Shown here piece by piece: positions 8,695-39,657 of a stretch of DNA of 64,000 nt; positions within the stretch are counted from its first letter, which is position 1, and each line of letters opens with the position of its first letter. Origin of the DNA: Candidatus Pacearchaeota archaeon (GTDB lineage: Archaea; Nanobdellota; Nanobdellia; Pacearchaeales; GW2011-AR1); NCBI GenBank assembly GCA_041651235.1, contig JBAZJQ010000002.1, forward strand, positions 71,615-135,614, written 5' to 3'. The notes under the pieces are model-generated. The model did not search any database. It saw nothing but the letters and a program-made list of their open reading frames with translations, and was not told the DNA's origin. Made by a program: the position numbers and the translations under genes.

Positions 8695-8749
8695 TTTAGG
8701 TCTTTTATACTATAAAAGATTTGTGTTGTTTTTAAATTTGTTGGAAGAA

Positions 8750-9109: not shown

Positions 9110-9168
9110 TAATTAAGTAAAATAAAGATATATTTAAATATATTGTGATTTCTTTATAGATATTTAAA

Positions 9169-10722: not shown

Positions 10723-10958
10723 AAACCTGGAAAAAAACACTATTAATTATTGCAATTATTTATTTAATACTAATTGTAATTAAGTCTATACTCGGCTGTT
10801 TTATGGATTGTCCAATGTCAATATGCGAATCAGGAGATAATTGCCCAACAATAAATTGTAATTGCCAATTTACCCAAATTTTAATTAATATATTATTATT
10901 TGGAATTCCTAGCTGGATAATATTTTTAATTATATTATTAAAAAAGGAGAGAAGATGA
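10719..10958 (+). CDS. small Cys-rich membrane protein
   Basis: 79 aa with two TM helices flanking CFMDCPMSICESGDNCPTINCNC. Start and stop overlap the neighbouring genes. Confidence 0.4.
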   Translation: MKTWKKTLLIIAIIYLILIVIKSILGCFMDCPMSICESGDNCPTINCNCQFTQILINILLFGIPSWIIFLIILLKKERR

Positions 10959-22677: not shown

Positions 22678-23555
22678 AGTAAACTTGGTTTTCTTGATTT
22701 AATTAACCCTAAAAACATTATTTGAGCAAATACATCAAAAACAAATAATCCTATAAATAACAAAATAATCATTGTAGTTGATAACCCCACCATGGAGGAA
22801 ATTATTGTTAAGAAAGTAACTGATAGAGCCGGGATAATCACAGAGATTAACATATAAAGAACAACCAAGGGATTTAGCTTGCTTCCATAAGCTTGGATTT
22901 GTATTAATTGTTCTTCATTTAATGCCTTAATACTATCTCGAATAATAATAGCTATATCGCTTCCTGCTTTCATTCCATTGCTAATCTGCCATAGAGTTCT
23001 TCTGAAGAAAACAGAAGGATTACTTTTACCTAGTGAATCAAATACTTCTGCTTCTGGTTCTCCTGCATTAATTCTCTTTACTGCTTTCTTAAATTCCAGG
23101 CTTAAACTTCCATAATCCGCATCAGCGATATTAGAAATTATATTAAAAAGAGGAACTCCTGAATTTAACTGAACCAGGATATCCTCTAGTCCCGGAATTA
23201 AATTTTTTTCAATATCCCTTTGTTTTCTTGAAACATAGATTCTTGGGTAAACTCTCTGGCTAAAGAATATAAAAATTGAGAATAAAAATGCTAATAAGAA
23301 TCCAAATAATACAGCAAAAACAATTTTTAGCAATAATAATATTGTAGTTGAAATTACAAAGAAAAATCCAAAAAAAACAACTGCACTTCTCATGCAGATT
23401 CCAAGATATTCTTCTCTTGTTAAATTAATGTCTGAATTTTTTAAATCGTGTCCAAGTTTAGATTCTTTTTTATATTTAAATTTAGAAGAGAAATATCTAG
23501 ATTTACTCTTTAATTTTTCTATTTTTGAGAAAGTAAATGGAATTTTGAATTTCAT
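22674..23555 (-). CDS. type II secretion system F-domain membrane protein (TadB/FlaJ-like)
   Basis: 293 aa polytopic protein. Its start and stop overlap the neighbouring genes. Confidence 0.7.
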   Translation of the reverse strand: MKFKIPFTFSKIEKLKSKSRYFSSKFKYKKESKLGHDLKNSDINLTREEYLGICMRSAVVFFGFFFVISTTILLLLKIVFAVLFGFLLAFLFSIFIFFSQRVYPRIYVSRKQRDIEKNLIPGLEDILVQLNSGVPLFNIISNIADADYGSLSLEFKKAVKRINAGEPEAEVFDSLGKSNPSVFFRRTLWQISNGMKAGSDIAIIIRDSIKALNEEQLIQIQAYGSKLNPLVVLYMLISVIIPALSVTFLTIISSMVGLSTTMIILLFIGLFVFDVFAQIMFLGLIKSRKPSLL

Positions 23556-25168
23556 CTGCCAAGTATTTTTTTGATATCATTTCTAGCAATATCTTTTAGT
23601 AATTGTTCTCTGTCTAAATAATAAAGATTCATAACTTTTCCAAAATCCATTAAATCCCTTATTTTATTTTTAATAAGCCAGGAAAGAATTTTCTTTTTAT
23701 TTTCTAAGTTTTCATTTAATTCTCTTTCGGACATCCCAGTATTTCTTGAAATATCTTCAAAAAATCTTGCACTTTGACTATGTTTTATTATCTTGTCTTC
23801 TTCAGGAATCCATCTATAAATAATATTTGCTCTTGCACTCTTATCTCCTGCCTCAAATTCTGCAACTTGAAAAATTCTTCTTATACCTCTTCTTCTATCT
23901 CTAAACATTACAACATTAAGGTTTACTGCTTTCAATAAATTTGCGGGAATATCCAAAGGGGGATTAGTTAATCTTGAAATTGTTTCTGCTGCTGAATCTG
24001 CATGAAGAGTTGCATAAACACTGTGTCCTGTATGCATTGCTTCAAATAAAACCATTGCCTCTTCTTTTCTCCTCATTTCACCTAGAATGATTCTATCGGG
24101 CCTCATTCTAAGGCTATTAACTAATAAATCTAGCATAGAAACTCCTCCTTTTCCTTCTGGATTAGCTGTTCTAACAACTAAAGGAGTCCAATATAAAAAA
24201 TCAGGGAGCATTAGCTCTCTTGTATCTTCAACACTAATTATTCTATGGTTTGGAGGAATAAATGCAAGGCAGGCATTTAAAAAAGAAGTTTTTCCAGAAG
24301 CGGTTCCTCCTGAAATTAAAATATTCATTTCATATTCTATTGCAAGCCAAATTAAACAGGAAGTATCTAAATCACATGTTCGATTATTTATAAAATCAAC
24401 GATTGTATAAGGATCTCTTGCGAATTTTCTAATTGTTATTGTATTTCCTTTTGTGCTTATTGGATATAAAATAGAATTAACTCTGTCTCCTGAAACTAAA
24501 TGAGCATCTAATAATGGACTTAAGACAGTTATCTGCCTTCCAACTCTTCTTGCAATAATATTTGAATAGTTATTTATCTCATCTTCTCTTGCAATCTTTA
24601 AATTAGTAATCAACCACCCATATTTTTTATGATAAACCCGAATTGGTTCTTTTGCAGAAGGAATTACAATCTCTTCTAAATTCATATCATTAACTAAGAA
24701 CTCTATTTCACCTAAACCAAGCATATCCTGCATTAATTTGCTTATTAAAAATTCCTTAGTATGCTCATCTATTGTAGGAAGTTTAGATCTCAATAAAGTA
24801 GTTGCTTCTGCCATAAACCTTTTTTTAATATTATTAAATGCATTAGGGTCTATTATCTCGCTCATTCCTATTGTTGTAACTGTTACTAATTCGGTCCTTA
24901 TATCATCGAGTAAAGTTGCTGTAGCAGTAGATACTTCTGGGACATAAAGATTGTAGGTATATCCTAATTCTCCTTTTTTTATTTCAACTCTTACTTTGGA
25001 CTTATCGATTTCTATTTCATAAGAATCCTGGTTTTTTGCATTAGAAGTTTCAAAAGGATGTTTAATATTTGTTTTTATTTCTGATTTAATTACTTCATCT
25101 GGTTTCTTCTTTGGAAAGAATTTCTTTTTAAAAAATAATTTATTGTGTTTTTTATGTTTCATTATCAC
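23552..25168 (-). CDS. type II/IV secretion ATPase (FlaI/TadA/VirB11 family), pilus assembly ATPase
   Basis: Walker A ISGGTASGKTS, plus VEDTRELML, RMRPDRIILGEMR and TGHSVYATLHA blocks. Confidence 0.85.
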   Translation of the reverse strand: MIMKHKKHNKLFFKKKFFPKKKPDEVIKSEIKTNIKHPFETSNAKNQDSYEIEIDKSKVRVEIKKGELGYTYNLYVPEVSTATATLLDDIRTELVTVTTIGMSEIIDPNAFNNIKKRFMAEATTLLRSKLPTIDEHTKEFLISKLMQDMLGLGEIEFLVNDMNLEEIVIPSAKEPIRVYHKKYGWLITNLKIAREDEINNYSNIIARRVGRQITVLSPLLDAHLVSGDRVNSILYPISTKGNTITIRKFARDPYTIVDFINNRTCDLDTSCLIWLAIEYEMNILISGGTASGKTSFLNACLAFIPPNHRIISVEDTRELMLPDFLYWTPLVVRTANPEGKGGVSMLDLLVNSLRMRPDRIILGEMRRKEEAMVLFEAMHTGHSVYATLHADSAAETISRLTNPPLDIPANLLKAVNLNVVMFRDRRRGIRRIFQVAEFEAGDKSARANIIYRWIPEEDKIIKHSQSARFFEDISRNTGMSERELNENLENKKKILSWLIKNKIRDLMDFGKVMNLYYLDREQLLKDIARNDIKKILGR

Positions 25169-26071: not shown

Positions 26072-27100
26072 CTATAAGTCCGGGTTATATATTAACTTTG
26101 CTGTTTTTATTATATCTCTTCTTAATTTAAAACTATTTGCCCATTTTGCATAAGCATTCCATCCTTGAAAACTCTCAATTAATTTTTCTTTAGAAATCTC
26201 ATTTCTTTTAAATTCATCAATTTTATTAATAAAATTCTTTATGTTTCTCTTTCTTAACAACCTAAAATAATAAAAATTTCTAAAACCCACAAAATCAATT
26301 CCTCTTGAAAGTCCAATTATCCTTGATTTATCTGGATGAAGTTCAATTTTTAATTTTTCTTTTAAAAATTCATCAATTTCTTTTTTCCAAATTTCTAGCT
26401 GTTCTTTTGATTTATGCAAAATCACAAAGTCATCTACATACCTAATATAATATTTTGCTTTTAATTTAGGTTTTATAAAATAATCTAATTCATTTAAGTA
26501 AACATTAGCAAAAAATTGTGAAGTCAAATTACCAAGGGGCATTCCAACTCCTTCTTCAACTTTCCTGTTAATTAAAATTTTTCTAATTAAATTCATTAAT
26601 TTTTCATCTTCTATTTTTCTTTGAAGAATAGAAATTAAAACTTCATGATTAACCTCTTGAAAATAATGTTTTATATCTGCTTTTAAACAATAAACTTTTT
26701 TTGTTCCATTAAATGAGACTTTTCTCTTGAATAAATCTAATCTTTTTAATGCAAATAAAGTTCCTTTTCCTATTCTATTTGCACAGGAATCATGGATAAA
26801 TATCTTTTCAAAAATAGGCTCAATTATATTTATAATTGAATGATGAACTATTCGGTCTCTAAATATTGACTTCGAGATTTTTCTGGTTTTTGGGTCTCGC
26901 AAAATAAATGTTTTCAAGGGTTTAGGGAAATAAGTTTTATTTTTTAATTCTTCATGTAATTTCAAAATATTCTCTCTAAAATTTTTCTCAAATTTAATAA
27001 CATAATCTTTTTTTGTCTTGCCTTTACGGGCTTTTCTCCATGCAAGAATTAAATCTTTCTTATTATAGATTTCAGAATAAAGATTTTTATAAGTTTTCAT
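26072..27100 (-). CDS. DGR-type reverse transcriptase
   Basis: 342 aa with RT motifs including YVDD and the DGR-typical motif-4 signature PLGNLTSQFFANVYL ([I/L]GxxxSQ). No maturase or endonuclease extension. The TR starts 24 nt upstream of its ATG. Confidence 0.85.
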   Translation of the reverse strand: MKTYKNLYSEIYNKKDLILAWRKARKGKTKKDYVIKFEKNFRENILKLHEELKNKTYFPKPLKTFILRDPKTRKISKSIFRDRIVHHSIINIIEPIFEKIFIHDSCANRIGKGTLFALKRLDLFKRKVSFNGTKKVYCLKADIKHYFQEVNHEVLISILQRKIEDEKLMNLIRKILINRKVEEGVGMPLGNLTSQFFANVYLNELDYFIKPKLKAKYYIRYVDDFVILHKSKEQLEIWKKEIDEFLKEKLKIELHPDKSRIIGLSRGIDFVGFRNFYYFRLLRKRNIKNFINKIDEFKRNEISKEKLIESFQGWNAYAKWANSFKLRRDIIKTAKLIYNPDL

Positions 27101-27124
27101 AATAATAAAGTCCTGAAGCCAAAC

Positions 27125-27209
27125 TATTCCAAGCGAGGCATTAGCATTCTCAGGATTCCTGTTGCAATTCAGGTTAACCCTGTCAGAGTTAGCATTGAAC
27201 CTCGCGACT
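27125..27209 (-). repeat. DGR template repeat (TR), 85 bp, non-coding
   Basis: Aligns without gaps to five ORF 3' ends. Read in the target frame it gives VARFNANSDRVNLNCNRNPENANASLGI, with eight AAY Asn codons. It has 25 A on the minus strand, and 23 of them are substituted in at least one VR. Confidence 0.85.
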
Positions 27210-27451
27210 TTGTTAGCAATTTCATCACTGCATCACTGCAATTATAATTTTCATCAAATAAAAGTAAAAAGCTTCAATCTTCATTTTACTGATTTTAATT
27301 GCGGTATTTCATGGCTTAAATCAAATAAAAATGCTCTAATGAAATTACATGTAGTCTGAATATTCAGAGTAAAACTCCAAAATCTTCAGGACAAGATAAA
27401 AAATAAATAAGATTATATAAATTCTTTCTCATATCAAATTCTTAAATTTTT

Positions 27452-28288
27452 TTACTTAGCGCCTTCGGCGCAACCACGTACCCCAAGCGAGGCAAGAGCA
27501 CCCCCAGGACTCCTGCCGCAACCCAGGTCCACCCAGCCAGAGTTAGCATCCAACCCCGCGACTCTTTCATCTATTTCATTGGGCTTTGAATCTACTCTCC
27601 AGATATATGGATTAGTTTGATTAATCCAATTATAAATAGAATTAATTTGATCAATATCCCCATCTCCTAAAAGTGCATTTAATGCTGGACTATCTCTTGA
27701 TTTAATAAACCTGTCTGGACCAATTATTTTTTCTTCTAATTCATATTGTTCATTTGTTTTGTAATTATGAATAATTTTATCTTTTCCTCTTGGCTGATAA
27801 GCTATTCTTGTTAAAGTTATAGGCCATTTATCTCTCATTGAGCTTTGTATAAACTTTCTTGCTTCTTCTGATTCTGGATTGTCTTTTTGTTCAAATAATG
27901 CTGTAAAAACAGCATGATAAAGAGGCATATCTGCAGTATAAAATTCTCCTTTTGGCTGTGCTATATTTCTGTAGTATACCCAGTAATCCTGAGTTTGTGC
28001 CTGCCCATTTTCAAGCAAAGTTTTAGCTAAATCAAAAGTATGAATTCCATTTCTATAGCTTACATTTGGAATTGTCCAGTAATCTCCTGCATTAATTATT
28101 GATTGATTTGGGTTTGTATTAGCAGGAATAACAACTTCTTGCTTGGGAAGATTATTAGTTTTAGCTTTATTTCCTTTATCTCTTCTGCTTTCTTCTTCTG
28201 CTTCTCTGTTTATTCTTGCAATTAAATCCTTGTCATAATGAATTCTCTTCCAATCTCCTCTGTCTCCTATTTGATTTAAGATTGTCAT
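27452..28288 (-). CDS. DGR variable (target) protein A
   Basis: 278 aa paralog with the shared N-terminus MTILNQIGDRGDWKRIHYDKDLIARINREAEE. VR1 is at the C-terminus (VAGLDANSGWVDLGCGRSPGGALASLGV). No signal peptide or TM segment. Confidence 0.85.
   Translation of the reverse strand: MTILNQIGDRGDWKRIHYDKDLIARINREAEEESRRDKGNKAKTNNLPKQEVVIPANTNPNQSIINAGDYWTIPNVSYRNGIHTFDLAKTLLENGQAQTQDYWVYYRNIAQPKGEFYTADMPLYHAVFTALFEQKDNPESEEARKFIQSSMRDKWPITLTRIAYQPRGKDKIIHNYKTNEQYELEEKIIGPDRFIKSRDSPALNALLGDGDIDQINSIYNWINQTNPYIWRVDSKPNEIDERVAGLDANSGWVDLGCGRSPGGALASLGVRGCAEGAK
27459..27471 (-). promoter_or_regulatory. GC hairpin 3' of VR1
   Basis: gcgcc-ttc-ggcgc, 7 nt from the VR1 boundary. Confidence 0.55.
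27479..27563 (-). repeat. DGR variable repeat VR1
   Basis: 19 mismatches to the TR in 85 bp, 17 of them at TR adenines (hand alignment). Confidence 0.85.
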
Positions 28289-29163
28289 TTTATTCCTCCT
28301 GAATTTTTTGTTTCAGCGCCCTTCGGGCGCACGACTAAACGTACCCCAAGAGAGGCATCAGCATACTCTGGACCCCAGTAGCAATACAGGTTAACCCCGC
28401 CAGAGCTAGCATCGAACCTCGCGACTCTTTCATCTACATTTTTAGGTTTTTCATTTAATCTCCAGAGATATGCATTAGTTTGATTAATCCATTGATAAAC
28501 CGAATTTATTTTATTAATATCTCCATTTCCTAAAAGAGATTTTAATGCCAAGCAATCTCCTGATTCAATGAGTCTATCTGGACCAATTATTTTTTCTTCT
28601 AATTCATATTGTTCATTTGTTTTGTAATTATGAATAATTTTATCTTTTCCTCTTGGCTGATAAGCTATTCTTGTTAAAGTTATAGGACATTTTTGTCTCA
28701 TTGAGTTTTGTATAAATTGCCTTGCTTCTTCAGCAATTTGTTTAAATTGAGGATTGTCTTTTTGTTCAAATAATGCTGTAAAAACAGCATGATAAAGAGG
28801 CATATCTCCTGTATAAAATTCTGCTTTTGGCTGTGCTATCTTTCTGTATTCTGCCCATTGCTCTTGTGTTTTTGCCTGCCCATTTTCAAGCAAAGTTTTA
28901 GATAAATCAAAAGTATGAATTCCATTTCTATAGCTTACATTTGGAATTGTCCAGTAATCTCCTGCATTAATTATTGATTGATTTGGGTTTGCATTTTCAG
29001 GAATAGTTGCTTCTTGCTTGGGAAGATTATTAGTTTTAGCTTTATTTCCTTTATCTCTTCTGCTTTCTTCTTCTGCTTCTCTGTTTATTCTTGCAATTAA
29101 ATCCTTGTCATAATGAATTCTCTTCCAATCTCCTCTGTCTCCTATTTGATTTAAGATTGTCAT
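28285..29163 (-). CDS. DGR variable (target) protein B
   Basis: 292 aa paralog. Its start overlaps... correction: its stop overlaps the start of protein A (ATGA-type junction). VR2 is near the C-terminus and is followed by the tail GVRLVVRPKGAETKNSGGIK. Confidence 0.85.
   Translation of the reverse strand: MTILNQIGDRGDWKRIHYDKDLIARINREAEEESRRDKGNKAKTNNLPKQEATIPENANPNQSIINAGDYWTIPNVSYRNGIHTFDLSKTLLENGQAKTQEQWAEYRKIAQPKAEFYTGDMPLYHAVFTALFEQKDNPQFKQIAEEARQFIQNSMRQKCPITLTRIAYQPRGKDKIIHNYKTNEQYELEEKIIGPDRLIESGDCLALKSLLGNGDINKINSVYQWINQTNAYLWRLNEKPKNVDERVARFDASSGGVNLYCYWGPEYADASLGVRLVVRPKGAETKNSGGIK
28316..28330 (-). promoter_or_regulatory. GC hairpin 3' of VR2
   Basis: gcgccc-ttc-gggcgc. Confidence 0.55.
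28343..28427 (-). repeat. DGR variable repeat VR2
   Basis: 15 mismatches to the TR, 13 of them at TR adenines. Confidence 0.85.
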
Positions 29164-29174
29164 TTTATTTTGGT

Positions 29175-30911
29175 TTATTTTATTCCTCCTCTTAAAATTT
29201 TATCTGTCAAGTCAATTGTTTTATTTGCCAAATCATTATTTCCTAAAACCTGCTCTGCATAAAATCCTGCTTTTTTTAAATCTTTAAACATTTCAGTCTG
29301 ATTTCCTATTTGAAGGTGAAAATAATAATGCTTTCCAGCATTATCTAAATAATTCTTTTTAATGCTTCTCCAATTATCAACCTCTCCATCTGAAATTGAG
29401 AAAATTAAATTCCCTCTTCCTTCAAAAAAACTTTTAACTTTGTTTAAATCTAATGAGGTATCCCCAAATTGAGGAGATAAAGCAACTTTTTTTGATTCAA
29501 GCAGTCCTTTTCCTATAACTGTTTCTTCACTAAATCCAGCTAAATCAACTGCATTTTGGTTTAACAAATGATTTTGCCTTAGATATTCTAAAAATCCATA
29601 CCAAGATAAAAGAGCATAATGATATCTGCTGTTGTTGCCCCAGGGAATCATTGTCTTAGAGCCAGCATCTCTTCCGCCAGCAGGATTCCAAGCCATACTG
29701 CCAGAACAATCAATTAAGCCAAATCTTGCTCTTGGAAATCCTCTCTGACTTATTTTAACTTCAAGAGGCATATTTAGATTCCATCTTTTTTTCTTTATGT
29801 CTAATTCTCCTGAATCATTTACTCCTAAACTTATATGCTTTAAATCATCTGTTTCTGGGTCAAATTCTCTTGAACCATACCAAAAAATAGGCATAGATGA
29901 TTGTTTTGTAAAGCTCTCTGCTTTTATATTTAATTTTTTAGCTAAACTTTCATAAATTAAATCTAATCCTTCAAAACTATTTATCCAATTAGGTATTTCC
30001 TCTCCTGAATTATAAGCTTTTTGAATTCTTGTTCTTTTAAAGTCCTTTGTTTTCATTTCCCTGTCAAATTCATTTCCTTCAGAGGAGCTTTCTTCTGTTT
30101 TTTTTCCTTTTGTTCCTGAACCATTATGGTTCATAAGGCATTGCGCATAATTTGGCTCCATTAACTCAGACATATTTTTTGCATAAGCTTGTGAGATTTT
30201 CTGCCAGTTCTTTTCATTTAAAAGATAACTTCTTATTTTACTTTTATCCCTGATTTTTGCCTCATTTAATTCCTGCTTAAATTCATTTATTCCACTTTCT
30301 TCTAAAAATCCACTTAAAGCTTCTAATATTTTCTTTCTTTGTTTTTCATCTGATGTAAAATATTTTTTTAATTGCTGTTTTTGGGTTTTATTTGCCCATA
30401 AAGCATTGTTTAATCTTGCATGTGCCTCATAAAAAGCAGTATATTTTCCTGAAGTTTCCCCAACATCTTTAAAAAATTCATTTATTCCCTGCAATGAAAA
30501 TCCATTTGACAAGTCATCATGCAGAATTGTATCTTCCAAAGCATTAGACATATAATGAGCATCTTCAGGTGAAAATCCTTTTTCTGCTAAAACATCCATA
30601 ATCGGCTCATAAATTAAATTAACATGATTGTCTAAATTTCTAGGACATCCGGAATACCCTTTATATTTATGATGATTTATTTCATGTCTTATTCCATCTC
30701 TTACAACAATAGGAGTTTTACCTGAATTTTTTTCTTCATAAAAAGGATCATATTTTATTTCTGTTTTTTTGTTTTCTAAAGAAGTTCTCATTTGAAAATG
30801 GGGCTCATTTCTTTGGGGATTATATTCTTCAACAGAGATATCTCTAAAATCAAATCCTCCCCTATTGCTTTCTATTTCAGCTATATTTTTTATTTCTTGT
30901 TTTGTTATCAT
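29175..30911 (-). CDS. HExxH motif + von Willebrand factor A (MIDAS) domain protein
   Basis: 578 aa. HEINH at GIRHEINHHKY in the N-terminal third. MIDAS DxSxS at GLIDCSGSM, with SISDGEVDN later. Sits between target genes C and B. Confidence 0.75.
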   Translation of the reverse strand: MITKQEIKNIAEIESNRGGFDFRDISVEEYNPQRNEPHFQMRTSLENKKTEIKYDPFYEEKNSGKTPIVVRDGIRHEINHHKYKGYSGCPRNLDNHVNLIYEPIMDVLAEKGFSPEDAHYMSNALEDTILHDDLSNGFSLQGINEFFKDVGETSGKYTAFYEAHARLNNALWANKTQKQQLKKYFTSDEKQRKKILEALSGFLEESGINEFKQELNEAKIRDKSKIRSYLLNEKNWQKISQAYAKNMSELMEPNYAQCLMNHNGSGTKGKKTEESSSEGNEFDREMKTKDFKRTRIQKAYNSGEEIPNWINSFEGLDLIYESLAKKLNIKAESFTKQSSMPIFWYGSREFDPETDDLKHISLGVNDSGELDIKKKRWNLNMPLEVKISQRGFPRARFGLIDCSGSMAWNPAGGRDAGSKTMIPWGNNSRYHYALLSWYGFLEYLRQNHLLNQNAVDLAGFSEETVIGKGLLESKKVALSPQFGDTSLDLNKVKSFFEGRGNLIFSISDGEVDNWRSIKKNYLDNAGKHYYFHLQIGNQTEMFKDLKKAGFYAEQVLGNNDLANKTIDLTDKILRGGIK

Positions 30912-30955
30912 TTTGTTTGTATTTTATTATTTAAATTGTTACATTCCAAATTTTT

Positions 30956-31723
30956 TTACTTAGCGCCTTCGGCGCAACCACGTACCCCAAGCGAGGCACC
31001 AGCATTCTCAGGATTCCTGCCGCAATCCAGGTCAACCCTGTCAGAGCCAGCATAGAACCTCGCGACTGAATTATTTCTTGGCTGCCAAAAATAAATATTA
31101 TTTCCTTGAGAATAATTTTGTATACTAGAACTTGTTTTGCATAATCCTTTATCTGTTATATTTGCTTTAGAGCTGATGTCTGCCCAACAATCTGAATTTA
31201 AATAATCACTAATTTCTACTTTATTTGTTAATACTAATTCTCCATTTGATTTAATTCCTTTAATATGCTGAATATAGAATTTATCTCCCTCTTTTGTAAA
31301 ATAAGCGTTTTGGTTTTCTCCATGCCAGATATCTTTAGGAGTTCGTTTAAGAATATCATCATAAACTTCTCTATGTTCCGGATTATCTAAATTATCTTTA
31401 AGATAAAAAATCAATTCCCATGTTTGTTCTGGAGTAGGCATTAAGAGATTTTCAGAAATTAAAGCTTTATTCTGGTCATACCAATTAGTATTTTGATGAG
31501 TTCTTTGTCTTGCAAAACTCATATCTATTAAAGGAACATAAACCCATTTATCATTTATTTCTCCCTTTCCAGCTTGGTTTTGTCTTTGTTCTGTTGGTTT
31601 AACAGGCAGTTTTCCTCTTCTGCTTTTTTCTTCTGCTTCTCTGTTTATTCTTGCAATTAAATCCTTGTCATAAGGAATTCTCTTCCAATCTCCTCTGTCT
31701 CCTATTTGATTTATGATCGTCAT
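30956..31723 (-). CDS. DGR variable (target) protein C (divergent central domain)
   Basis: 255 aa. Shares the N-terminal ~33 aa and the VR/tail (GVRGCAEGAK) with the other targets, but the central ~170 aa are unrelated by eye. Confidence 0.8.
   Translation of the reverse strand: MTIINQIGDRGDWKRIPYDKDLIARINREAEEKSRRGKLPVKPTEQRQNQAGKGEINDKWVYVPLIDMSFARQRTHQNTNWYDQNKALISENLLMPTPEQTWELIFYLKDNLDNPEHREVYDDILKRTPKDIWHGENQNAYFTKEGDKFYIQHIKGIKSNGELVLTNKVEISDYLNSDCWADISSKANITDKGLCKTSSSIQNYSQGNNIYFWQPRNNSVARFYAGSDRVDLDCGRNPENAGASLGVRGCAEGAK
30963..30975 (-). promoter_or_regulatory. GC hairpin 3' of VR3
   Basis: gcgcc-ttc-ggcgc, identical to the VR1 hairpin. Confidence 0.55.
30983..31067 (-). repeat. 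DGR variable repeat VR3
   Basis: 11 mismatches to the TR, all at TR adenines. Confidence 0.85.
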
Positions 31724-32565
31724 ATTAAACTCCTTTTAGAATTTTTTGTTTCAGCGCCCTTCGGGCGCACGACTAAACGTACCCCAAGCGAGGCACCAGC
31801 AACCTCAGGATACCTGCCGCAACTCAGGCAAACCCTGTCAGAGCCAGCACCGAACCCCGCGACTCTTTCATCAACTGATTTAGGCTTTGAATTTAATCTA
31901 AAAAGATAAGCATTAGTTTGATTAATCCAATTATAAATAGAATTAATTTGATTAATATCTTCATTTCCTAAAAGTGCTTTTAATGCTGAACTATCTCCTG
32001 ATTCAATGAGTCTATCTGGACCAATTATATTTTCTTCTAATTCATATTGTTCATTTGTTTTGTAATTATGAATTATTTTATCTTTTCCTCTTGGCTGATA
32101 AGCTATTCTTGTTAAAGTTATAGGATATTTTTGTCTCATTGATTTTTGTATAAACTTTCTTGCTTCTTCTGATTCTGGATTGTCTTTTTGTTCAAATAAT
32201 GCTGTAAAAACAGCATGATAAAGAGGCATATCTCCTGTATAAAATTCTGCTTTTGGCTGTGCTATCTTTCTGTATTCTGCCCATTGCTCTTGTGTTTTTG
32301 CCTGCCCATTTTCAAGCAAAGTTTTAGATAAATCAAAAGTATGAATTCCATTTCTATAGCTTACATTTGGAATTGTCCAGTAATCTCCTACATTAATTAT
32401 TGATTGATTTGGATTTATATTAACAGGAGGATTGGTTTTTATTTTGTTTCCTTTATCTTTTCTGCTTTTTTCTTCTGCTTCTCTGTTTATTCTTGCAATT
32501 AAATCCTTGTCATAATGAATTCTCTTCCAATCTCCTCTGTCTCCTATTTGATTTAAGATTGTCAT
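31720..32565 (-). CDS. DGR variable (target) protein D
   Basis: 281 aa paralog. The N-terminal ~126 aa are identical to protein E, and the tail is like protein B. Confidence 0.85.
   Translation of the reverse strand: MTILNQIGDRGDWKRIHYDKDLIARINREAEEKSRKDKGNKIKTNPPVNINPNQSIINVGDYWTIPNVSYRNGIHTFDLSKTLLENGQAKTQEQWAEYRKIAQPKAEFYTGDMPLYHAVFTALFEQKDNPESEEARKFIQKSMRQKYPITLTRIAYQPRGKDKIIHNYKTNEQYELEENIIGPDRLIESGDSSALKALLGNEDINQINSIYNWINQTNAYLFRLNSKPKSVDERVAGFGAGSDRVCLSCGRYPEVAGASLGVRLVVRPKGAETKNSKRSLI
31754..31768 (-). promoter_or_regulatory. GC hairpin 3' of VR4
   Basis: gcgccc-ttc-gggcgc. Confidence 0.55.
31780..31864 (-). repeat. DGR variable repeat VR4
   Basis: 17 mismatches to the TR, all at TR adenines. 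Confidence 0.85.
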
Positions 32566-32576
32566 GTTATTTTATT

Positions 32577-33425
32577 TTATTTTATTCCTCCTGAATTTTG
32601 TGACGAGTTCGCCTGCGGGCGAACACGTACCCCAAGAGAGGCATCAGCATCCTCAGGAACCCCGTAGCAATCCAGGTCCACCCCGTCAGAGAGCGCATTG
32701 AACCTCGCGACTCTTTCATCTACATTTTTAGGTTTTTCATTTAATCTCCAGAGATATGCATTAGTTTGATTAATCCATTGATAAACCGAATTTATTTTAT
32801 TAATATCTCCATTTCCTAAAAGAGATTTTAATGCCAAGCAATCTCCTGATTCAATGAGTCTATCTGGACCAATTATTTTTTCTTCTAATTCATATTGTTC
32901 ATTTGTTTTGTAATTATGAATAATTTTATCTTTTCCTCTTGGCTGATAAGCTATTCTTGTTAAAGTTATAGGACATTTTTGTCTCATTGAGTTTTGTATA
33001 AATTGCCTTGCTTCTTCAGCAATTTGTTTAAATTGAGGATTGTCTTTTTGTTCAAATAATGCTGTAAAAACAGCATGATAAAGAGGCATATCTCCTGTAT
33101 AAAATTCTGCTTTTGGCTGTGCTATCTTTCTGTATTCTGCCCATTGCTCTTGTGTTTTTGCCTGCCCATTTTCAAGCAAAGTTTTAGATAAATCAAAAGT
33201 ATGAATTCCATTTCTATAGCTTACATTTGGAATTGTCCAGTAATCTCCTACATTAATTATTGATTGATTTGGATTTATATTAACAGGAGGATTGGTTTTT
33301 ATTTTGTTTCCTTTATCTTTTCTGCTTTTTTCTTCTGCTTCTCTGTTTATTCTTGCAATTAAATCCTTGTCATAATGAATTCTCTTCCAATCTCCTCTGT
33401 CTCCTATTTGATTTAAGATTGTCAT
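32577..33425 (-). CDS. DGR variable (target) protein E
   Basis: 282 aa paralog. The body is identical to protein B over ~195 aa up to the VR. It has a different tail (GVRVRPQANSSQNSGGIK). Confidence 0.85.
   Translation of the reverse strand: MTILNQIGDRGDWKRIHYDKDLIARINREAEEKSRKDKGNKIKTNPPVNINPNQSIINVGDYWTIPNVSYRNGIHTFDLSKTLLENGQAKTQEQWAEYRKIAQPKAEFYTGDMPLYHAVFTALFEQKDNPQFKQIAEEARQFIQNSMRQKCPITLTRIAYQPRGKDKIIHNYKTNEQYELEEKIIGPDRLIESGDCLALKSLLGNGDINKINSVYQWINQTNAYLWRLNEKPKNVDERVARFNALSDGVDLDCYGVPEDADASLGVRVRPQANSSQNSGGIK
32607..32624 (-). promoter_or_regulatory. GC hairpin 3' of VR5 (different stem sequence, same structure)
   Basis: gttcgcc-tgcg-ggcgaac. Confidence 0.55.
32628..32712 (-). repeat. 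DGR variable repeat VR5
   Basis: 16 mismatches to the TR, 13 of them at TR adenines. Confidence 0.85.
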
Positions 33426-33446
33426 GTTATTTTATTTTATTTTTAT

Positions 33447-34889
33447 TTATTGCTGCTTATCTTTTTCTTTATTCTCTTGTTTTTCTTGGCTATCTTTATC
33501 TTTCTTGTTTTTTGCCATATCTATTTCAATATCAACTGCATCTTTTACCCAAGACAAACCAATAGCACGATTATTATTAAATGGCTCATAAGGATTAACT
33601 GCACTTTTTCCTTTTTGAGATAATTCGCTGTACCCTAACAAAGTTGTTCCATCTGCAGTTTTAAAATAATCTAAAGCTCTGTTTCCTTTTGTTGCTTCTT
33701 CCAGAGAAGTTAAAATTATGTCCTGATTTTCTTTAAAATCGCTCTTCAATCTTTCTGCAACTTCTGCAATCATTTTTGGAGCTTCATCTAAATATTCTGA
33801 TTTTAATATGCTGGGATTTAAAACATTCTGATAAGCAGAAGTTAATTCAAATGCCTTAAACATTAAATCAACTGGATTTATTTCCTGCTCGGGATTTTTT
33901 AATTTTGCAAGATAATGCAAAGCAGAAGCATATCTGGCAACAGATTGAAGTGTTCTTTGAACAGGAACACTTACAAGAGAACAGATTTCCTTTCCATTTT
34001 TATTTCTTGAACAATCCTGGCATTTATATGGCCAGGTTTTTCCTTTTGCAGTTGGAGATTCTCCTTCTCCCTGGCAATTTCCTAATCCAAACTTTAAATA
34101 ATCCATTACTGCTCTTGCTTCTAATCCCGGCTCCAATGTTAATTGAGAAATTTCTTTGTTTGCCTGAATAATTTTTTCAGTTAAATCTCTTTTAGGGGCT
34201 TCTTTTATTCCAGGATGAGCTTCTCTTAATCTGTCTATAAGAATTCTGTCTTCAATTGTTGGCTGAAACTGGCTGTAATCTAAATCTAAAACTAATCCAA
34301 ACCTGTTCCCAAGTGCTTTATCAACATCAAAAGTTCCCTTAAACTCGCCATTTCCATAATTTGCAGTAGCTATTGAAGAAACATATCCTTTATCTCCAAT
34401 TGGAATTGAATTTCCTTTATGCATTATTCTTCCATTTCCAATTGCTAAAAATTGGTTCTGTGCAATGGGAGGACATCTGTTAAATTCCTCTAAATCCCAA
34501 AATAAAGATTTATGATTGCCATTTAATACTCTTTGAACCTGCTCTTTGTTAATATCAGTTAAAATATCCCGGTAAATATCAAGTTCAGAATGCCCTTCTA
34601 TTGTTAATGCATGTCCCCCTTCTAATTTGCTTCCATTAAAATAATAATTATGAATATCTCTTGCAAGCTGAGATTTACCGCATCCAGTATTTCCAATTAA
34701 AAGAGTGTTCATTCCAGCTAAAACTCCTGCAACAGCTAAATCAGTTACATTTAATCCTGCAAAAAAATTATTAGTATTAAGATAAACAGGGCAGTTTTCT
34801 TTAATATATTCAGGAGTTTTTCCATCTAAAAAAGCTTTTTTTGCTTTTTCCCCTAATTTTAAGTCCTCATAAGATAGTTTATCTGCCAT
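33447..34889 (-). CDS. AAA+ ATPase (MoxR/AAA_5-like) with a Cys-rich insertion and an acidic/Lys-rich tail
   Basis: Walker A LLIGNTGCGKSQ, Walker B-like LFWDLEEF and ATANYG...ALGNRFGLVLDL, reminiscent of MoxR-type sensor/Arg regions. Also CQGEGESPTAKGKTWPYKCQDCSRNKNGKEIC. Confidence 0.7.
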   Translation of the reverse strand: MADKLSYEDLKLGEKAKKAFLDGKTPEYIKENCPVYLNTNNFFAGLNVTDLAVAGVLAGMNTLLIGNTGCGKSQLARDIHNYYFNGSKLEGGHALTIEGHSELDIYRDILTDINKEQVQRVLNGNHKSLFWDLEEFNRCPPIAQNQFLAIGNGRIMHKGNSIPIGDKGYVSSIATANYGNGEFKGTFDVDKALGNRFGLVLDLDYSQFQPTIEDRILIDRLREAHPGIKEAPKRDLTEKIIQANKEISQLTLEPGLEARAVMDYLKFGLGNCQGEGESPTAKGKTWPYKCQDCSRNKNGKEICSLVSVPVQRTLQSVARYASALHYLAKLKNPEQEINPVDLMFKAFELTSAYQNVLNPSILKSEYLDEAPKMIAEVAERLKSDFKENQDIILTSLEEATKGNRALDYFKTADGTTLLGYSELSQKGKSAVNPYEPFNNNRAIGLSWVKDAVDIEIDMAKNKKDKDSQEKQENKEKDKQQ

Positions 34890-35237: not shown

Positions 35238-35651
35238 ATGATAAATAAAAAATCACAGGTAAGTATTGAATATATAATTATAATGGGATTTGTAACTATT
35301 GTTATAATTGGGCTTTTGGGTATTGCTTTTGTTTATAGTGGGAGCATAAAAGACAGGCTTAAAATGACTCAAATAAATAATTTTGGAAATAAAATAATAT
35401 CCACAGCAGAATCTGTTTTTTATTATGGAGAGCCTTCCAAAGCTACAATTTCTGTTTATCTTCCAGAAAATGTTGAACAAATTGAAATATCAGAAAATAC
35501 CTTGTTTATTACATATCAAGGAAGTTCTGGAATAGATAAAATTGCCTTTTCAAGTGAAGTTCCTATTGAAGGAACTTTAAATTCCATTTCAGGTGTTAAA
35601 AAAATAGAAATTATAGCTGAAGAAAGTAGAGCAACAATTAGCCAAGTTTAA
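35238..35651 (+). CDS. archaeal pilin-like protein (class III signal peptide)
   Basis: MINKKSQVSIEYIIIMGFVTIVIIGLLGIAFVY. Confidence 0.65.
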   Translation: MINKKSQVSIEYIIIMGFVTIVIIGLLGIAFVYSGSIKDRLKMTQINNFGNKIISTAESVFYYGEPSKATISVYLPENVEQIEISENTLFITYQGSSGIDKIAFSSEVPIEGTLNSISGVKKIEIIAEESRATISQV

Positions 35652-35652
35652 A

Positions 35653-36048
35653 ATGATTTTCAAAAAAGCACAAAGCAGTATTGAGTTTATGATTCTTGTA
35701 GGGGTAGTTATATTTTTTTTAGTTGTTTTCTTAGGAGCAATACAAGGGAGTATGTCTGATAAATTAAAAGAAAAACAAAGCATTATGGTTCAGGATTTAG
35801 CTTCATCTGTTCAAGATGAAATTAATCTTGCTTCAAAATCAAGTGATGGCTATTACAGAAATTTTAATATTCCTGAAAAAATAAATGGCAGAGATTATAG
35901 TATTGAAATATTAGAGGAAATGGTTTATGTTAAAACAAATGATAATAAAAATGCTCTTGCTCTCCCTCTTGCTTCTGTAACTGGAAATGTTGTAAAAGGA
36001 GAGAATATAATTACAAAACAAAATGGAGAGGTTGTTTTGAATCCGTAA
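35653..36048 (+). CDS. archaeal pilin-like protein (class III signal peptide)
   Basis: MIFKKAQSSIEFMILVGVVIFFLVVFLG. Confidence 0.65.
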   Translation: MIFKKAQSSIEFMILVGVVIFFLVVFLGAIQGSMSDKLKEKQSIMVQDLASSVQDEINLASKSSDGYYRNFNIPEKINGRDYSIEILEEMVYVKTNDNKNALALPLASVTGNVVKGENIITKQNGEVVLNP

Positions 36049-36049
36049 A

Positions 36050-36556
36050 ATGAAAGAACAAGCAATAATTATTTTTATTCCAAATAATAAGAAAATAGAT
36101 GATGTTAGAAAAAAATATGATAGGTATTATAAAGAATTTAAGCCACATATAACTTTGGTTTATCCATTTAAAGTTGCTAACCAAAAAAAGGTTTGTGAAC
36201 ATATTATTAATTCTATAAAAAATTTTAAATCATTTAAAATAGAATTAAAAGGATTAAAAAGATCAGCTAAAGAGTATTATCTTTATCTTGTAATTAATAA
36301 AGGAAAAAATAATATTGTCAAATTGTATAAAAAACTTAATTCTGGAATATTAAAGGGATTTGAAAATAAAAAAATGCCTAGATATATCCCCCATGTAACT
36401 CTTGGAAGCTTTTCTAGCAAATCTAAGATGGAGGAAGCAATTAAAATTATTAAAAAGAAGGATATTAAAATAAATGCAGATATAAGCAAAATTCATCTAC
36501 TGACTTTTAAAAAAGGAGCAGAAATAGAAAAAATTAAGGGGTTTAAATTAAAATGA
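36050..36556 (+). CDS. 2H phosphoesterase (LigT / 2'-5' RNA ligase-like)
   Basis: Two HxT/S motifs, KPHITLVYPF and IPHVTLGSF, about 80 aa apart. Confidence 0.7.
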   Translation: MKEQAIIIFIPNNKKIDDVRKKYDRYYKEFKPHITLVYPFKVANQKKVCEHIINSIKNFKSFKIELKGLKRSAKEYYLYLVINKGKNNIVKLYKKLNSGILKGFENKKMPRYIPHVTLGSFSSKSKMEEAIKIIKKKDIKINADISKIHLLTFKKGAEIEKIKGFKLK

Positions 36557-37056
36557 AAATAAAAAACAAGTCTGCACAAGCCTGGGGAATGGATTTAATG
36601 ATTGGAGTGATTATTTTTTCAATTGGAATAATTGTATTTTTTATTTATTCAATTAATGCACCTGGAGAGCAAAAAGAAAATTTTCAGGAGCTTTCTTATC
36701 AGGGAAATTTAATAGCTAAAACTATTTTATCAGAGGGATATCCTTTAGATTGGAATGACATTAATGCAGTTAAAATTGGAATTTTAAGTGGAGATAAAAT
36801 AAATCAAACTAAATTAGAAAGGTTTTATGATTTAAGCCAGTCAAATTATTATAAAACAAAAACTCTTTTTAATACAAAATATGATTATTATTTTTTCTTT
36901 GATAAAAATATGACAATTAATTCTGTTGAAGTTGATGGTATTGGAAAGCCAGGAATAACAAGAGATAATATTAATGCATCAAATTTAATTAAAATTACAA
37001 GAGTTGTTGTTTATGAAGATAAGCCAACAACTGCTTATTTGTATGTGTTTGAATAA
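36553..37056 (+). CDS. archaeal pilin-like protein (class III signal peptide)
   Basis: KNKSAQAWGMDLMIGVIIFSIGIIVFFIY. Confidence 0.6.
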   Translation: MKIKNKSAQAWGMDLMIGVIIFSIGIIVFFIYSINAPGEQKENFQELSYQGNLIAKTILSEGYPLDWNDINAVKIGILSGDKINQTKLERFYDLSQSNYYKTKTLFNTKYDYYFFFDKNMTINSVEVDGIGKPGITRDNINASNLIKITRVVVYEDKPTTAYLYVFE

Positions 37057-37161
37057 AACAAACTTTCTTTAAAAAGACAAGTTTGACAAAGCAATCTTTC
37101 TTTTTAGAGAAAAGACAAGATTGAACAAAGAAAAACTAAATATGATAAAAGTTAAATCAAA
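37057..37161 (+). repeat. intergenic hairpin repeat element (same family as 46431-46525 and 46562-46656)
   Basis: caaactttcttt-aaa-aagacaagtttg, then caatctttcttttt-aga-gaaaagacaagattg, then gaacaaagaa...atgataaaagttaaatcaaaat. These parallel the 46.4 kb copies. Confidence 0.6.
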
Positions 37162-39657
37162 ATGGCAATGAACAAAAAAGGGGTGTTTTTTAGTACAGAT
37201 GCATTGATAGCACTAATTATAATTTTAATGAGCATAGTTGTGGCATACCCAATAATAAAATATTCCACTTATGAAACTTCTATTCAAAGTGATGTTATGA
37301 ATGTTTTATCTGTTCTGAAAATAGGAGAGATAGATAATGTTTATGTTCAAGGTTTAATCAGCAATGGGAATATTAGCAATCTAAATAATACGGTTTTAGA
37401 ACAAATAGGAGAATTTTATGTTACAGATGAGGAGCAGGCTAAATTATTATGTGATTCAGTTTTATCTGAATTAGATATTAAAGAAAGTATTGGAATTTGG
37501 TATGGGGATAAACTAATTTGTTCTGTAAATTCAACTGCAATTGATAATCCAAAGAATATTGAAGTTGACAGGCAGATTATAAGTGGAATAAGAGAAGGAG
37601 AAAGTGTAACTGGATTTTCTGCAAGAGCTTATCTTTCAAGAGATATCCAAACTAAATATTTTTATTTTGGAGGCTATGTTGGAGATGGAAATATCAGCTT
37701 GAATATAGATTATAGTGGAATTATTAATTCTTCTGAAATTGAACTAACAATTAATAATGATTTTGAAATTTATGTTAATGGGGACAAACAAGGAGATTAT
37801 TCTAAATCTGCTTCGGAATTTATTCCGGTAAGATATTCTATTCCTGCTGTGGATTTTAATTCTGGAAATAATTTAATTGAAATTAGAGGCAAGAATTTAC
37901 ATATTGGAGGAGGATATATAAAGATAAATTACAAGCCAAATGTCCAATATACTCAAACAAAGAAATATTCTTTTCCTGGAATTGATGGGATTGTTAATTT
38001 ATATGATGGTTTTGATTTTCCAAGCCAGATAAACGAAATGAACTTATTCCTCCATATAGATAATAATAATACATTTTTTTTGATAATTGGGAATCAAACA
38101 GTTTATGATGGAGCTACATCTGGTGAAGAAGAAATCACAATTAATGATGCAAGTTTATCTTCTTTATTAGATTATGATTCTTTAGAAGGGAAAACAGTTC
38201 CAATAAGATTAGGATTAGAAAATGCTTCTTACACCTCACAATTAGGCGGAATTGGAGATGTTTATTCTGTTACTGATTTATCTGGGAGCATGGCTGATGG
38301 TTGTATTAATTATAATTGGTTTTGCTGTCTTCTTTCTGGTTCTTGTAATACTCAAACAAAATGTAATTCTTGTTCTGGTTATTGGCAGGAAAAAATAACA
38401 TTAGCTAAACAAGCAAATAAAGTTTTTATTGATTCTGTTTTAAATATATCTGGAAACAGAGTTGGACTGATTGGCTATGCAACATCAAGTATTTCTAGTT
38501 ATTCTCATGTTCTTTCAAATGATTCTGTTTCTTTAAAGGCAAAAGTAGACCAATGGGTTGCAAATGGAAATACTTGTGTTTGTTGTGGTATAAACAGTGC
38601 AGTTAGTGGTTTGCTTAATTACTCAACTTCAGATAAATTCCGTTCAATGGTTGTTATGAGTGATGGGGAAGCCAATGTCCAGTGTGCTCAACAAGGAACT
38701 GGAAATGCAAAACAAGATGCAATAAAAGCTGCATGTGATGCTTATAATAATTATGGCATAAGAGTTTATTCAGTTGGATTTGCTGATGCAGATGAAACAA
38801 CTTTGCAGGCAATAGCAACTTGCGGTAATGGAAGTTATTATTATAGTAGTATTTCAGAGATAGCTGAAATTTATCAGGAAATTGCAGAAGATATAATTGA
38901 AGCTTCTTATAATGAGCAGACAATAGAAATCTTAGGACAGTTATACAGCAAGCTATATCCTAATTCTTATATTGAAATTGATTATACAGAAGAGCAAATT
39001 CCTTATGGATTAATTATCTCGAGTGAAAAACAATTTGATAATGAGTATCAAGGAAGTTTTGATATACCTTTTAATTCAAGTGTATTAGATGTGAAGGTTG
39101 TTTCTTATTCTGGGCCTAGATGGACAAAAGAAGTTAATATAAATAATATTAATGTTTATGATTTAAGTTCTTATGGTTCTGATTATATTAAACTTGGAGA
39201 TCCTTATGTAATTAATATTCCAACCTATTTAATAAACACAACAAATAATATAGAAGTTACAACAGGACTTTCTCCATTGAATTCAAGTGCAGGTTCTGTT
39301 TATAATAAAATTATTTATAGTATTCTAAAAAATGTAACTGCTTATTCTCAGATTTCTGCTTCTGCAGAAGGATGCATCTGGAATCTTGAATTTGAAGATA
39401 ATTCAACATCTGCTGTAAGAATTCCTATTTCTTATGTTGGCTCAAATGAGTGTTACTATACTTCTTCAAATATAGCTTATAATGAAAATGATGCTATACA
39501 AAATGCAGTTTATAGTTTGCTGACTAAACTTGATTTTGATTCCAATGGAAAAATTGACAGCCAAATCTTTACACAAGATTTGAAAATAGAATCCAGTGAA
39601 ATCACAGGAATTCCATATACCTGGAGCACAGAAGTGCAGGTGAGAAGATGGGATTGA
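37162..39657 (+). CDS. large pilin-like surface protein with a vWA domain
   Basis: N-terminal KKGVFFSTDALIALIIILMSIVVAY (class III-like). MIDAS VTDLSGSM with VVMSDGEAN. Cys-rich CCLLSGSCNTQTKCNSCSG. Confidence 0.7.
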   Translation: MAMNKKGVFFSTDALIALIIILMSIVVAYPIIKYSTYETSIQSDVMNVLSVLKIGEIDNVYVQGLISNGNISNLNNTVLEQIGEFYVTDEEQAKLLCDSVLSELDIKESIGIWYGDKLICSVNSTAIDNPKNIEVDRQIISGIREGESVTGFSARAYLSRDIQTKYFYFGGYVGDGNISLNIDYSGIINSSEIELTINNDFEIYVNGDKQGDYSKSASEFIPVRYSIPAVDFNSGNNLIEIRGKNLHIGGGYIKINYKPNVQYTQTKKYSFPGIDGIVNLYDGFDFPSQINEMNLFLHIDNNNTFFLIIGNQTVYDGATSGEEEITINDASLSSLLDYDSLEGKTVPIRLGLENASYTSQLGGIGDVYSVTDLSGSMADGCINYNWFCCLLSGSCNTQTKCNSCSGYWQEKITLAKQANKVFIDSVLNISGNRVGLIGYATSSISSYSHVLSNDSVSLKAKVDQWVANGNTCVCCGINSAVSGLLNYSTSDKFRSMVVMSDGEANVQCAQQGTGNAKQDAIKAACDAYNNYGIRVYSVGFADADETTLQAIATCGNGSYYYSSISEIAEIYQEIAEDIIEASYNEQTIEILGQLYSKLYPNSYIEIDYTEEQIPYGLIISSEKQFDNEYQGSFDIPFNSSVLDVKVVSYSGPRWTKEVNINNINVYDLSSYGSDYIKLGDPYVINIPTYLINTTNNIEVTTGLSPLNSSAGSVYNKIIYSILKNVTAYSQISASAEGCIWNLEFEDNSTSAVRIPISYVGSNECYYTSSNIAYNENDAIQNAVYSLLTKLDFDSNGKIDSQIFTQDLKIESSEITGIPYTWSTEVQVRRWD

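Follow-up and report, generated by a model that had tools for sequence, protein, structure and literature searches.

Apparently mosaic target genes with a single template repeat in a diversity-generating retroelement of a Pacearchaeota contig

Do the tandem target genes of a diversity-generating retroelement (DGR) evolve as static duplicates, or do they exchange segments with one another while retrohoming rewrites only a short variable repeat (VR) in each? The question is raised by a 64,000-nucleotide stretch of a Candidatus Pacearchaeota genome (GCA_041651235.1, contig JBAZJQ010000002.1; hereafter the window). By its sequence features, the locus studied here is a DPANN/Nanoarchaeota-type DGR with one template repeat (TR) and five targets, A to E. 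Two of these, B and E, are identical over 550 bp yet carry VRs that differ at 12 positions, and the four targets with related bodies (A, B, D and E, the E-type genes) are statistically mosaic in the window contig. The explanation that we favour, and consider probable, is a canonical DPANN-type array whose targets co-evolve by homologous recombination, with retrohoming varying the VR only.

The cassette lies entirely on the minus strand and is given here in order from its ATPase end. Window numbering is used throughout; positions within the TR and VRs are counted from 0, the 88-nt repeat running from 0 to 87.

33447..34889, minus strand: AAA+ ATPase of the AAA_5 family (MoxR/dynein-related), 480 amino acids (aa), the first cassette gene; Walker A motif GNTGCGKS at residue 66
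32577..33425, minus strand: target E, 282 aa; VR 32625-32712; atypical hairpin GTTCGCC-CGCA-GGCGAAC at 32607-32624; tail GVRVRPQANSSQNSGGIK
31720..32565, minus strand: target D, 281 aa; VR 31777-31864; hairpin GCGCCC-GAA-GGGCGC at 31754-31768; tail equal to the B tail over 50 bp
30956..31723, minus strand: target C, 255 aa; C-type body unrelated to the others, with a D/E-like leader; VR 30980-31067; hairpin GCGCC-GAA-GGCGC at 30963-30975; A tail
29175..30911, minus strand: HExxH and von Willebrand factor A (vWA) protein, 578 aa; N-terminal HEINH (residue 76) and C-terminal DCSGS (residue 401)
28285..29163, minus strand: target B, 292 aa; VR 28339-28426; hairpin GCGCCC-GAA-GGGCGC at 28316-28330; tail GVRLVVRPKGAETKNSGGIK
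27452..28288, minus strand: target A, 278 aa; VR 27476-27563; hairpin GCGCC-GAA-GGCGC at 27459-27471; tail GVRGCAEGAK
27122..27209, minus strand: TR, 88 nt; 22 adenines in the mutable part (0-68); 3' end TGGAATAGTT (IMH*)
26072..27100, minus strand: DGR reverse transcriptase (RT), 342 aa, intact; Pfam RVT_1 match with E 2.9e-22

Identity between B and E and the mosaic of the targets

The argument starts from the pair B and E. B 28414-28963 equals E 32700-33249 (offset 4286), a tract of 550 bp without a mismatch that encodes 183 identical residues. An earlier sequence-only reading of this DNA had noticed the identity by eye. The identity itself stands and is exact, but the E coordinates had been off by one (at the offset of 4285 that they imply, 346 of 525 bp mismatch, a random level), and the identical residues had been put at about 195. 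The exact alignment, proposed at the time as a check, shows no scattered differences in the two bodies. The VRs differ at exactly the 12 positions that had been counted, all of them in VR positions 13-61 (49 nt), against none in 576 flanking nt (Fisher P = 1.4e-14), which bears out the claim that variation between these two genes is limited to the mutable part of the VR. Nine of the differences are at TR adenines and three (positions 18, 33 and 57) are not. Distances over all VR pairs run from 10 to 19, and the 12 between B and E is in keeping with them, which is what full rewriting of the VRs should give.

The 3' end of the VR adds a point about timing. Identity between B and E returns over the last 26 bp of the VR (62-87), and this stretch includes a non-adenine change, G75T, that is found in B and E only. 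Position 75 lies in the homing site, 3' of the last mutable adenine (68). In the Bordetella phage DGR, retrohoming does not overwrite this part. A survey of DGRs likewise finds that mutagenesis stops, on its 3' side, just before the homing site begins (PMC5758913). Identity that resumes beyond the variable part, together with a shared G75T that retrohoming does not overwrite, implies that the homogenised B/E tract covered the whole VR, and at least one of VR_B and VR_E would then have been rewritten after that homogenisation. The reading of this pair as an internal control, in which variation is confined to the VR, is well supported.

Shared tracts also link the other targets, in conflicting ways. 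D 32177-32583 matches E 33037-33443 over 407 identical bp (389 coding and 18 upstream), of which the 213 bp at the 3' side (32177-32389) are also identical to B 28751-28963. A 28135-28294 matches B 29010-29169 over 160 identical bp (154 coding, or 51 codons, and 6 upstream). The tails pair off as A with C, identical over 51 bp (27444-27494 and 30948-30998), and B with D, identical over 50 bp (28301-28350 and 31739-31788). The sequence-only reading had described a common 5' stretch of ~390 bp in D and E, upstream sequence included, 51 first codons common to A and B, and three types of tail; each of these descriptions holds. The tail pairing conflicts with the relationships of the bodies, and target C combines a D/E-like leader with an unrelated body and an A-type tail. 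Module by module, the targets read as follows.

Target E: 5' module DE, body BE, tail E
Target D: 5' module DE, body D, tail BD
Target C: 5' module DE-like, body C-type, tail AC
Target B: 5' module AB, body BE, tail BD
Target A: 5' module AB, body A, tail AC

For a test of mosaic structure, A, B, D and E were aligned outside the VR and the informative events classified, with each indel counted once. Thirteen events that group A with B and D with E (columns 97-200) are followed, after a single switch, by 24 that group A with D and B with E (columns 414-745); in columns 262-356, between the two patterns, only A deviates. The exact probability of such a single-switch pattern is 5.6e-10, and none of 200,000 permutations was equally good. 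The four E-type genes are, in the window contig, statistically mosaic. Switch points had been placed at the VR edges, and this is where the change from body to tail and the change of body type (C against the others) do occur; the other two lie elsewhere, near codons 52-67 and 130-138, both within the 5' third of the gene.

Could all of this be the outcome of plain recent duplications without conversion, with B and E as young duplicates and the remaining likenesses due to descent? The 550-bp identity of B and E is what such a history would leave. But no single tree fits the grouping of A with B and D with E at the 5' end, of A with D and B with E in the 3' part of the body, and of A with C and B with D in the tails, and B and E differ from each other in both their 5' modules and their tails. 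The site-pattern test (P = 5.6e-10) also disfavours this history, if the contig is correct, and we find it scarcely credible.

The favoured explanation, recombination among targets combined with retrohoming into the VRs, would work as follows. The RT would copy TR RNA, misincorporating at adenines, and the cDNA would replace approximately the first 69 nt of each of the five VRs, each of which ends in the TGGGGT homing site, followed by a GC-rich hairpin in the coding tail. A target would consist of a conserved N-terminal leader, a low-complexity 5' linker, an E- or C-type body, the VR with its homing site, and the hairpin tail. The tandem copies would be in concerted evolution, with gene conversion and/or unequal crossing-over homogenising and reshuffling these modules; the VR, refreshed from the TR and common to all copies, would be one junction between bodies and tails. 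Retrohoming would then diversify the VR alone. Acting after homogenisation, it would leave B and E identical on either side of a 49-nt stretch that holds all 12 differences.

The retroelement and its homing sites

What places the locus among DGRs is, first of all, its repeats. The core pattern of the TR and VRs, defined by their invariant bases, occurs six times in the 64 kb (one TR and five VRs), against zero expected by chance. All five VRs lie in the final ~40 codons of their open reading frames (ORFs), and the TR lies outside, between target A and the RT. Within VR positions 0-68, 61 of the 66 mismatches between TR and VRs fall on TR adenines (adenine/non-adenine: A 15/2, B 11/1, C 9/0, D 15/0, E 11/2). 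The TR translates as KVARFNANSDRVNLNCNRNPENANASLGIV and is rich in AAY codons. The VRs all end 3' in TGGGGTACGT, where the TR has TGGAATAGTT; the homing site is CTTGGGGTACGT in every VR and CTTGGAATAGTT in the TR, that is, TGGGGT as against TGGAAT.

Three of the 12 B/E differences, as noted above, are off adenines. VR_A (27530) and VR_E (32679) in addition share a non-adenine change, T33G, beside mutated adenines (GTTAAC to GTGGAC). The two observations suggest either off-adenine errors of the RT or VR-to-VR exchange.

The second feature is a set of hairpins. All five VRs are followed, 1-9 nt away, by a GC-rich hairpin with a stem of 5-7 bp inside the coding tail; the same search found no GC-rich hairpin 3' of the TR. 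The G+C content of the window is ~28%. The three tail peptides come from translating the same sort of GC-rich hairpin in different frames (TGC GCC GAA GGC GCT gives CAEGA, and CGC CCG AAG GGC GCT gives RPKGA), and the tail types CAEGA, VVRPKGA and REAH/REAP recur across other genomes. Among 28 distinct sites with a homing site and hairpin in the fetched family loci, the loop is GAA in 19 and a GAA/GNA trinucleotide in 26; the CGCA tetraloop of E, on its 7-bp stem, is unique. Between the E stem and the B/D stem the changes are at paired positions and pairing is retained, a pattern as would be expected for a cis element under structural selection.

The top NCBIfam match of the RT is a group II intron RT, with a score under the cut-off, and its translation contains the motif LGNLTSQ (read by eye). 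Scans of eight cassette ORFs returned no DGR accessory family (Avd, HRDC) among their matches, and a search of the interval from target A to the RT found no ORF of at least 50 aa on the coding strand, smaller or more distant ORFs lying outside that search. In three related cassettes (L001 13791-14830, L020 13624-14664 and L062 12404-13425) a frameshift or in-frame stop divides the RT into two ORFs. Judging from such split RTs, many relatives may be inactive or recoded; the window RT is intact.

Agreement and disagreement among assemblies

How far can the mosaic be trusted as assembled? Exact-protein look-up identified five contigs of the same population, L057 to L061. L057 and L059 come from ENA ERZ27247363 (MEGAHIT, k141), and L058 and L061 are Logan contigs from SRR8542065. 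L057 (3567 bp) spans D, C, the 578-aa gene and the start of B; L059 (104 kb) begins inside A and continues past the TR and RT; L060 stops 123 nt into E. Apart from the 5' modules, these contigs match the window at 100% wherever they overlap it, VR_A, VR_C and VR_D included. L057, L058, L059 and L060 reproduce the bodies, VRs, tails and gene order, and the target C protein on L057 and the RT protein on L059 are likewise unchanged. What the contigs do not reproduce is the 5' modules of A and D. Look-ups with the exact E and B proteins found no other record, and the identity of the B and E bodies was seen in none of the other contigs found.

Several findings weigh against the favoured explanation and for an assembly artefact, in which the paralogs are real but the assembler made the perfect identities and the module combinations, by collapse and arbitrary phasing, and the true genes are less identical, more tree-like, or both. 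L057 joins a B-type 5' module to the D body, and L059 joins a D/E-type 5' module to the A body; the differences between the window and the MEGAHIT assembly are confined to 32390-32566 and 28089-28192. Between the modules lie two stretches, one of 61 nt that is the same in A, B, D and E and one of 213 nt that is the same in B, D and E, so short-read graphs can mis-phase them. L057 is a loop contig, with the same 141-mer at both ends and a period of 3426 bp, which is the spacing of B and D. All of its k-mers occur in the window arrangement, so it may come from circling the B/D repeat in the assembly graph, or it may be a genuine duplication or circle junction.

A sister genome supplies a parallel case. 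Its co-assembled metagenome-assembled genome (MAG), L003, has two targets with identical bodies, but in the JGI assemblies L020 and L021, which are a single base apart over 6 kb, those two bodies are only 90.3% identical. L003 has the same ATPase and vWA gene as L020 and L021, as well as the same pair of VRs and of tails, and its body is pieced together from the two L020 alleles. The identity in L003 looks like bubble collapse, with two-way conversion as the alternative, and the comparison shows that perfect identities can stem from such collapse. We had taken L003 as independent confirmation of the B/E case and have withdrawn it as such, its identity being assembly-dependent. Contig L006 was left out for a 380-bp terminal repeat (1-380 equal to 3279-3658), and homologues of the 578-aa gene are mostly found on contigs barely longer than the gene (many of ~1.8-2.8 kb), which indicates that short-read assemblies routinely break or loop in the target repeats.

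Other findings speak against an artefact. Any single swap across the shared tracts of the window would yield a shorter line plus a closed circle, so that no order other than that of the window gives one linear path in which every unique segment is used once. Neighbouring informative sites are mostly less than 110 nt apart and can be phased by ordinary reads. The family is tree-like in neither assembly, and in both the 578-aa gene is followed by an AB-type leader and the ATPase by a D/E-type leader. In line with the favoured explanation, too, the ends of the MEGAHIT contigs coincide with repeat boundaries predicted from the window, at -18 for the D/E leader and -6 for the A/B leader, and L057 starts and stops exactly at the 160-bp A/B repeat.

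Junctions between leaders and unrelated body types, as in window target C, are a further obstacle to the artefact, and here the relatives are informative. The leader is a conserved N-terminal peptide of ~30 residues. (A reading of it as an RGD motif, from IGDRGDW, was dropped on finding relatives without RGD.) Within a genome, though not from one genome to another, genes of different body type have near-identical 5' modules. Unrelated bodies with near-identical 5' modules occur in four relatives: in the closest, L062, an E-type and a C-type gene share 163 nt of 5' sequence at 100%, and such shared modules measure 137 nt at 97.8% in L001 and 91 nt at 92% in L011. Mis-phasing of near-identical copies cannot produce junctions of a leader with unrelated bodies, and module exchange in the family is therefore real. 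Taking both sides together, we think it rather unlikely, though a possibility of some weight, that the mosaic was made by the assembler.

A third possibility is that both assemblies are right, and that the population holds several recombinant cassette haplotypes with recombination between targets still ongoing. The junction of the B 5' module with the D body would then be a tandem-duplication or circle junction, and that of the D/E 5' module with the A body a deletion junction. The L059 junction, of the D/E 5' module with A-specific sites from column 262, needs 141-mers that are absent from the window; it is not simply another walk through the same graph, and either one assembler is wrong or both haplotypes exist. 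Both alternative junctions are as expected from crossing-over, between B and D in the 213-bp segment and between D/E and A in the 61-bp segment. Against this, MEGAHIT passes contigs built at smaller k to later rounds, which makes chimeric k-mers possible, and the two assemblies have the same VRs, which speaks for a single clone or sample. We consider coexisting haplotypes improbable. If they did exist, the cassette would have two layers of diversification, combinatorial exchange of leaders, linkers, bodies and tails through homologous recombination and adenine mutagenesis of the VR, the former possibly favoured by the TR-refreshed VR and by retrohoming nicks and hairpins.

Concerted evolution of the targets by recombination thus remains the explanation that we prefer, and the exact module combinations and perfect identities in the window contig are not secure. 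The suggestion that conversion or recombination acts among these copies is upheld in part: the incongruent sites and the shared 5' modules of the relatives favour it, but which 5' module belongs to which body is not secure, the MEGAHIT assembly pairing them differently.

Relatives, companion proteins and known systems

Relatives of the targets occur in MAGs of Woesearchaeota, Pacearchaeota and Nanoarchaeota, and the order of the cassette is kept in them: ATPase, target(s), a protein of ~560-630 aa, target(s), then TR and RT. In the window the cassette is flanked (21766-25168 and 35238-39657) by genes that resemble an archaeal type IV pilus system, with a T2SSE ATPase and two T2SSF platform proteins on one flank and, on the other, small proteins with pilin-like hydrophobic N-termini and an 831-aa VWA protein. 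This pilus-like neighbourhood is not kept in the relatives examined.

Two further loci carry leader-bearing genes in long arrays. There are at least 15 tandem, translationally coupled genes of this kind in L066 4895-17884 (JGI 3300063115 Ga0598292_0000001, a 737-kb contig) and at least 6 in L064 4507-10981 (GCA_028716945.1). Their leader (e.g. MITLTGKRPIKFDRDLANRVNKEYEN) is fused to very different bodies (lectin-like, repeat- or propeller-like, and others), and the arrays flank an AAA_5 ATPase and an HExxH+vWA gene. No RT is present in the fetched flanks. Judged by gene content, these loci look like arrays of leader-tagged cargo that the ATPase/vWA pair serves, the DGR being an optional addition. 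A different kind of relative is L012 (DAOTCN010000002.1, 379 kb, labelled Candidatus Paceibacterota bacterium), which has at 8419-12067 an E-type target and an RT very close to that of the window (phmmer 1e-157). This may be either a DPANN contig binned as a member of the candidate phyla radiation (CPR) or a cassette transferred between CPR bacteria and DPANN archaea.

The ATPase is identified by a Pfam AAA_5 match (E 1.2e-5) that exceeds the gathering score. The 578-aa protein has no Pfam, NCBIfam or PDB sequence match, and its vWA domain was revealed only by structure prediction and Foldseek. The AlphaFold2 model (pLDDT 85) matches vWA domains with E values of 1e-4 to 1e-3, including CLCA1 (6pyo, E 1e-4, TM 0.62), BatB (3ibs), TFIIH p44 and Rpn10. 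Its HExxH motif (residues 76-80) is invariant in 25 homologues, and a DxSxS motif resembling a metal ion-dependent adhesion site (MIDAS) lies at 401. The combination of an invariant HExxH...GCP with the predicted vWA domain recalls the self-cleaving metalloprotease-vWA proteins of CLCA type. The AAA_5 ATPase/vWA pair probably handles the leader-bearing target proteins.

The E-type target, modelled by AlphaFold2 at pLDDT 85, has no significant Foldseek match in PDB or BFVD and no PDB sequence match. The best relevant match, the human C-type lectin MCL (3whd), is not significant (E 0.8, TM 0.46), and the AvpA motifs listed in PMC5006420 are absent. With no significant structural neighbour and no AvpA motifs, the C-type lectin fold expected of the target is unconfirmed.

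Is such an array new? Among the closest known elements are the DGRs of Nanoarchaeota (DUSEL4), in which the homing site has TGGGGT where the TR has TGGAAT and a hairpin with a GRA loop lies within the target gene (Paul et al. 2015, PMC4372165). Like them, the present element has a DPANN host, several targets, orphan target proteins, TGGGGT/TGGAAT and an in-ORF hairpin of GRA type (GAA) in A, B, C and D, with CGCA in E. Unlike them, it has five targets on one TR within an operon of the AAA_5 ATPase and the HExxH+vWA protein, and its targets have neither AvpA motifs nor a sequence or fold match in PDB. Multi-target tandem cassettes make up 15% of DGRs in another survey, whose largest array, an eight-target Stenotrophomonas record, is itself suspected of misassembly (Wu et al. 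2018, PMC5758913). Tandem targets in one cassette and a 3' limit of mutagenesis just before the homing site are common to those DGRs and to ours, as is the doubt about assembly; that survey contains no analysis of target mosaicism.

Bacterial MoxR-vWA ternary conflict systems have been tied to ligand-binding proteins diversified by DGRs (Kaur et al. 2020, PMC7159879). There too, a MoxR-type AAA+ ATPase and a vWA protein share an operon beside DGR-diversified proteins. Those systems are found in cyanobacteria and gammaproteobacteria, the vWA protein usually carries the variable FGS/CLec domain as a fusion, and VMAP is present. The window differs in its archaeal host, in the HExxH domain on the vWA protein and in the separate, small, leader-bearing genes for its variable proteins: the vWA protein has no VR, all five VRs being in separate small ORFs, and scans against Pfam and NCBIfam gave no match to a VMAP or STAND family in the cassette.

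Recent intragenomic duplication of targets has been reported, and intragenic recombination has been proposed to fuse different N-terminal domains to a diversified C-terminal module (PMC7517822; PMC8144416). Those events are between loci and at the level of domains. Here, assembly permitting, exchange is seen at the nucleotide level among tandem copies, including the leader and the hairpin tail.

In Neisseria pilE/pilS and Borrelia vlsE, paralogous copies swap segments by homologous recombination, which gives mosaics. The exchange of segments among paralogs is common to those systems and to the present array. They have an expression site and silent copies, a layout that is absent here, where hypervariation comes from the retroelement and not from conversion. 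In the literature searched, which did not cover Paul et al. 2017, we found no description of nucleotide-level mosaicism among the targets of one cassette. The element itself is of a known kind, and its evolutionary detail is modestly new.

What would the mosaic mean, if it is real? DPANN DGR target arrays would be libraries of recombining modules and not static duplicates, in which exchange keeps the scaffolds uniform and reshuffles leaders and tails, and the retroelement varies the binding site alone. B and E would be a rare natural control that shows how sharp the limits of DGR mutagenesis are. In two genomes, different assemblies of one population disagree exactly in these paralogs, so that published target counts and comparisons for DGRs from short-read MAGs may be affected. 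The conserved operon of ATPase, HExxH+vWA protein and leader-tagged genes may outweigh the mosaic in importance, and it points to a dedicated machine for handling variable proteins in organisms that depend on attachment to a host.

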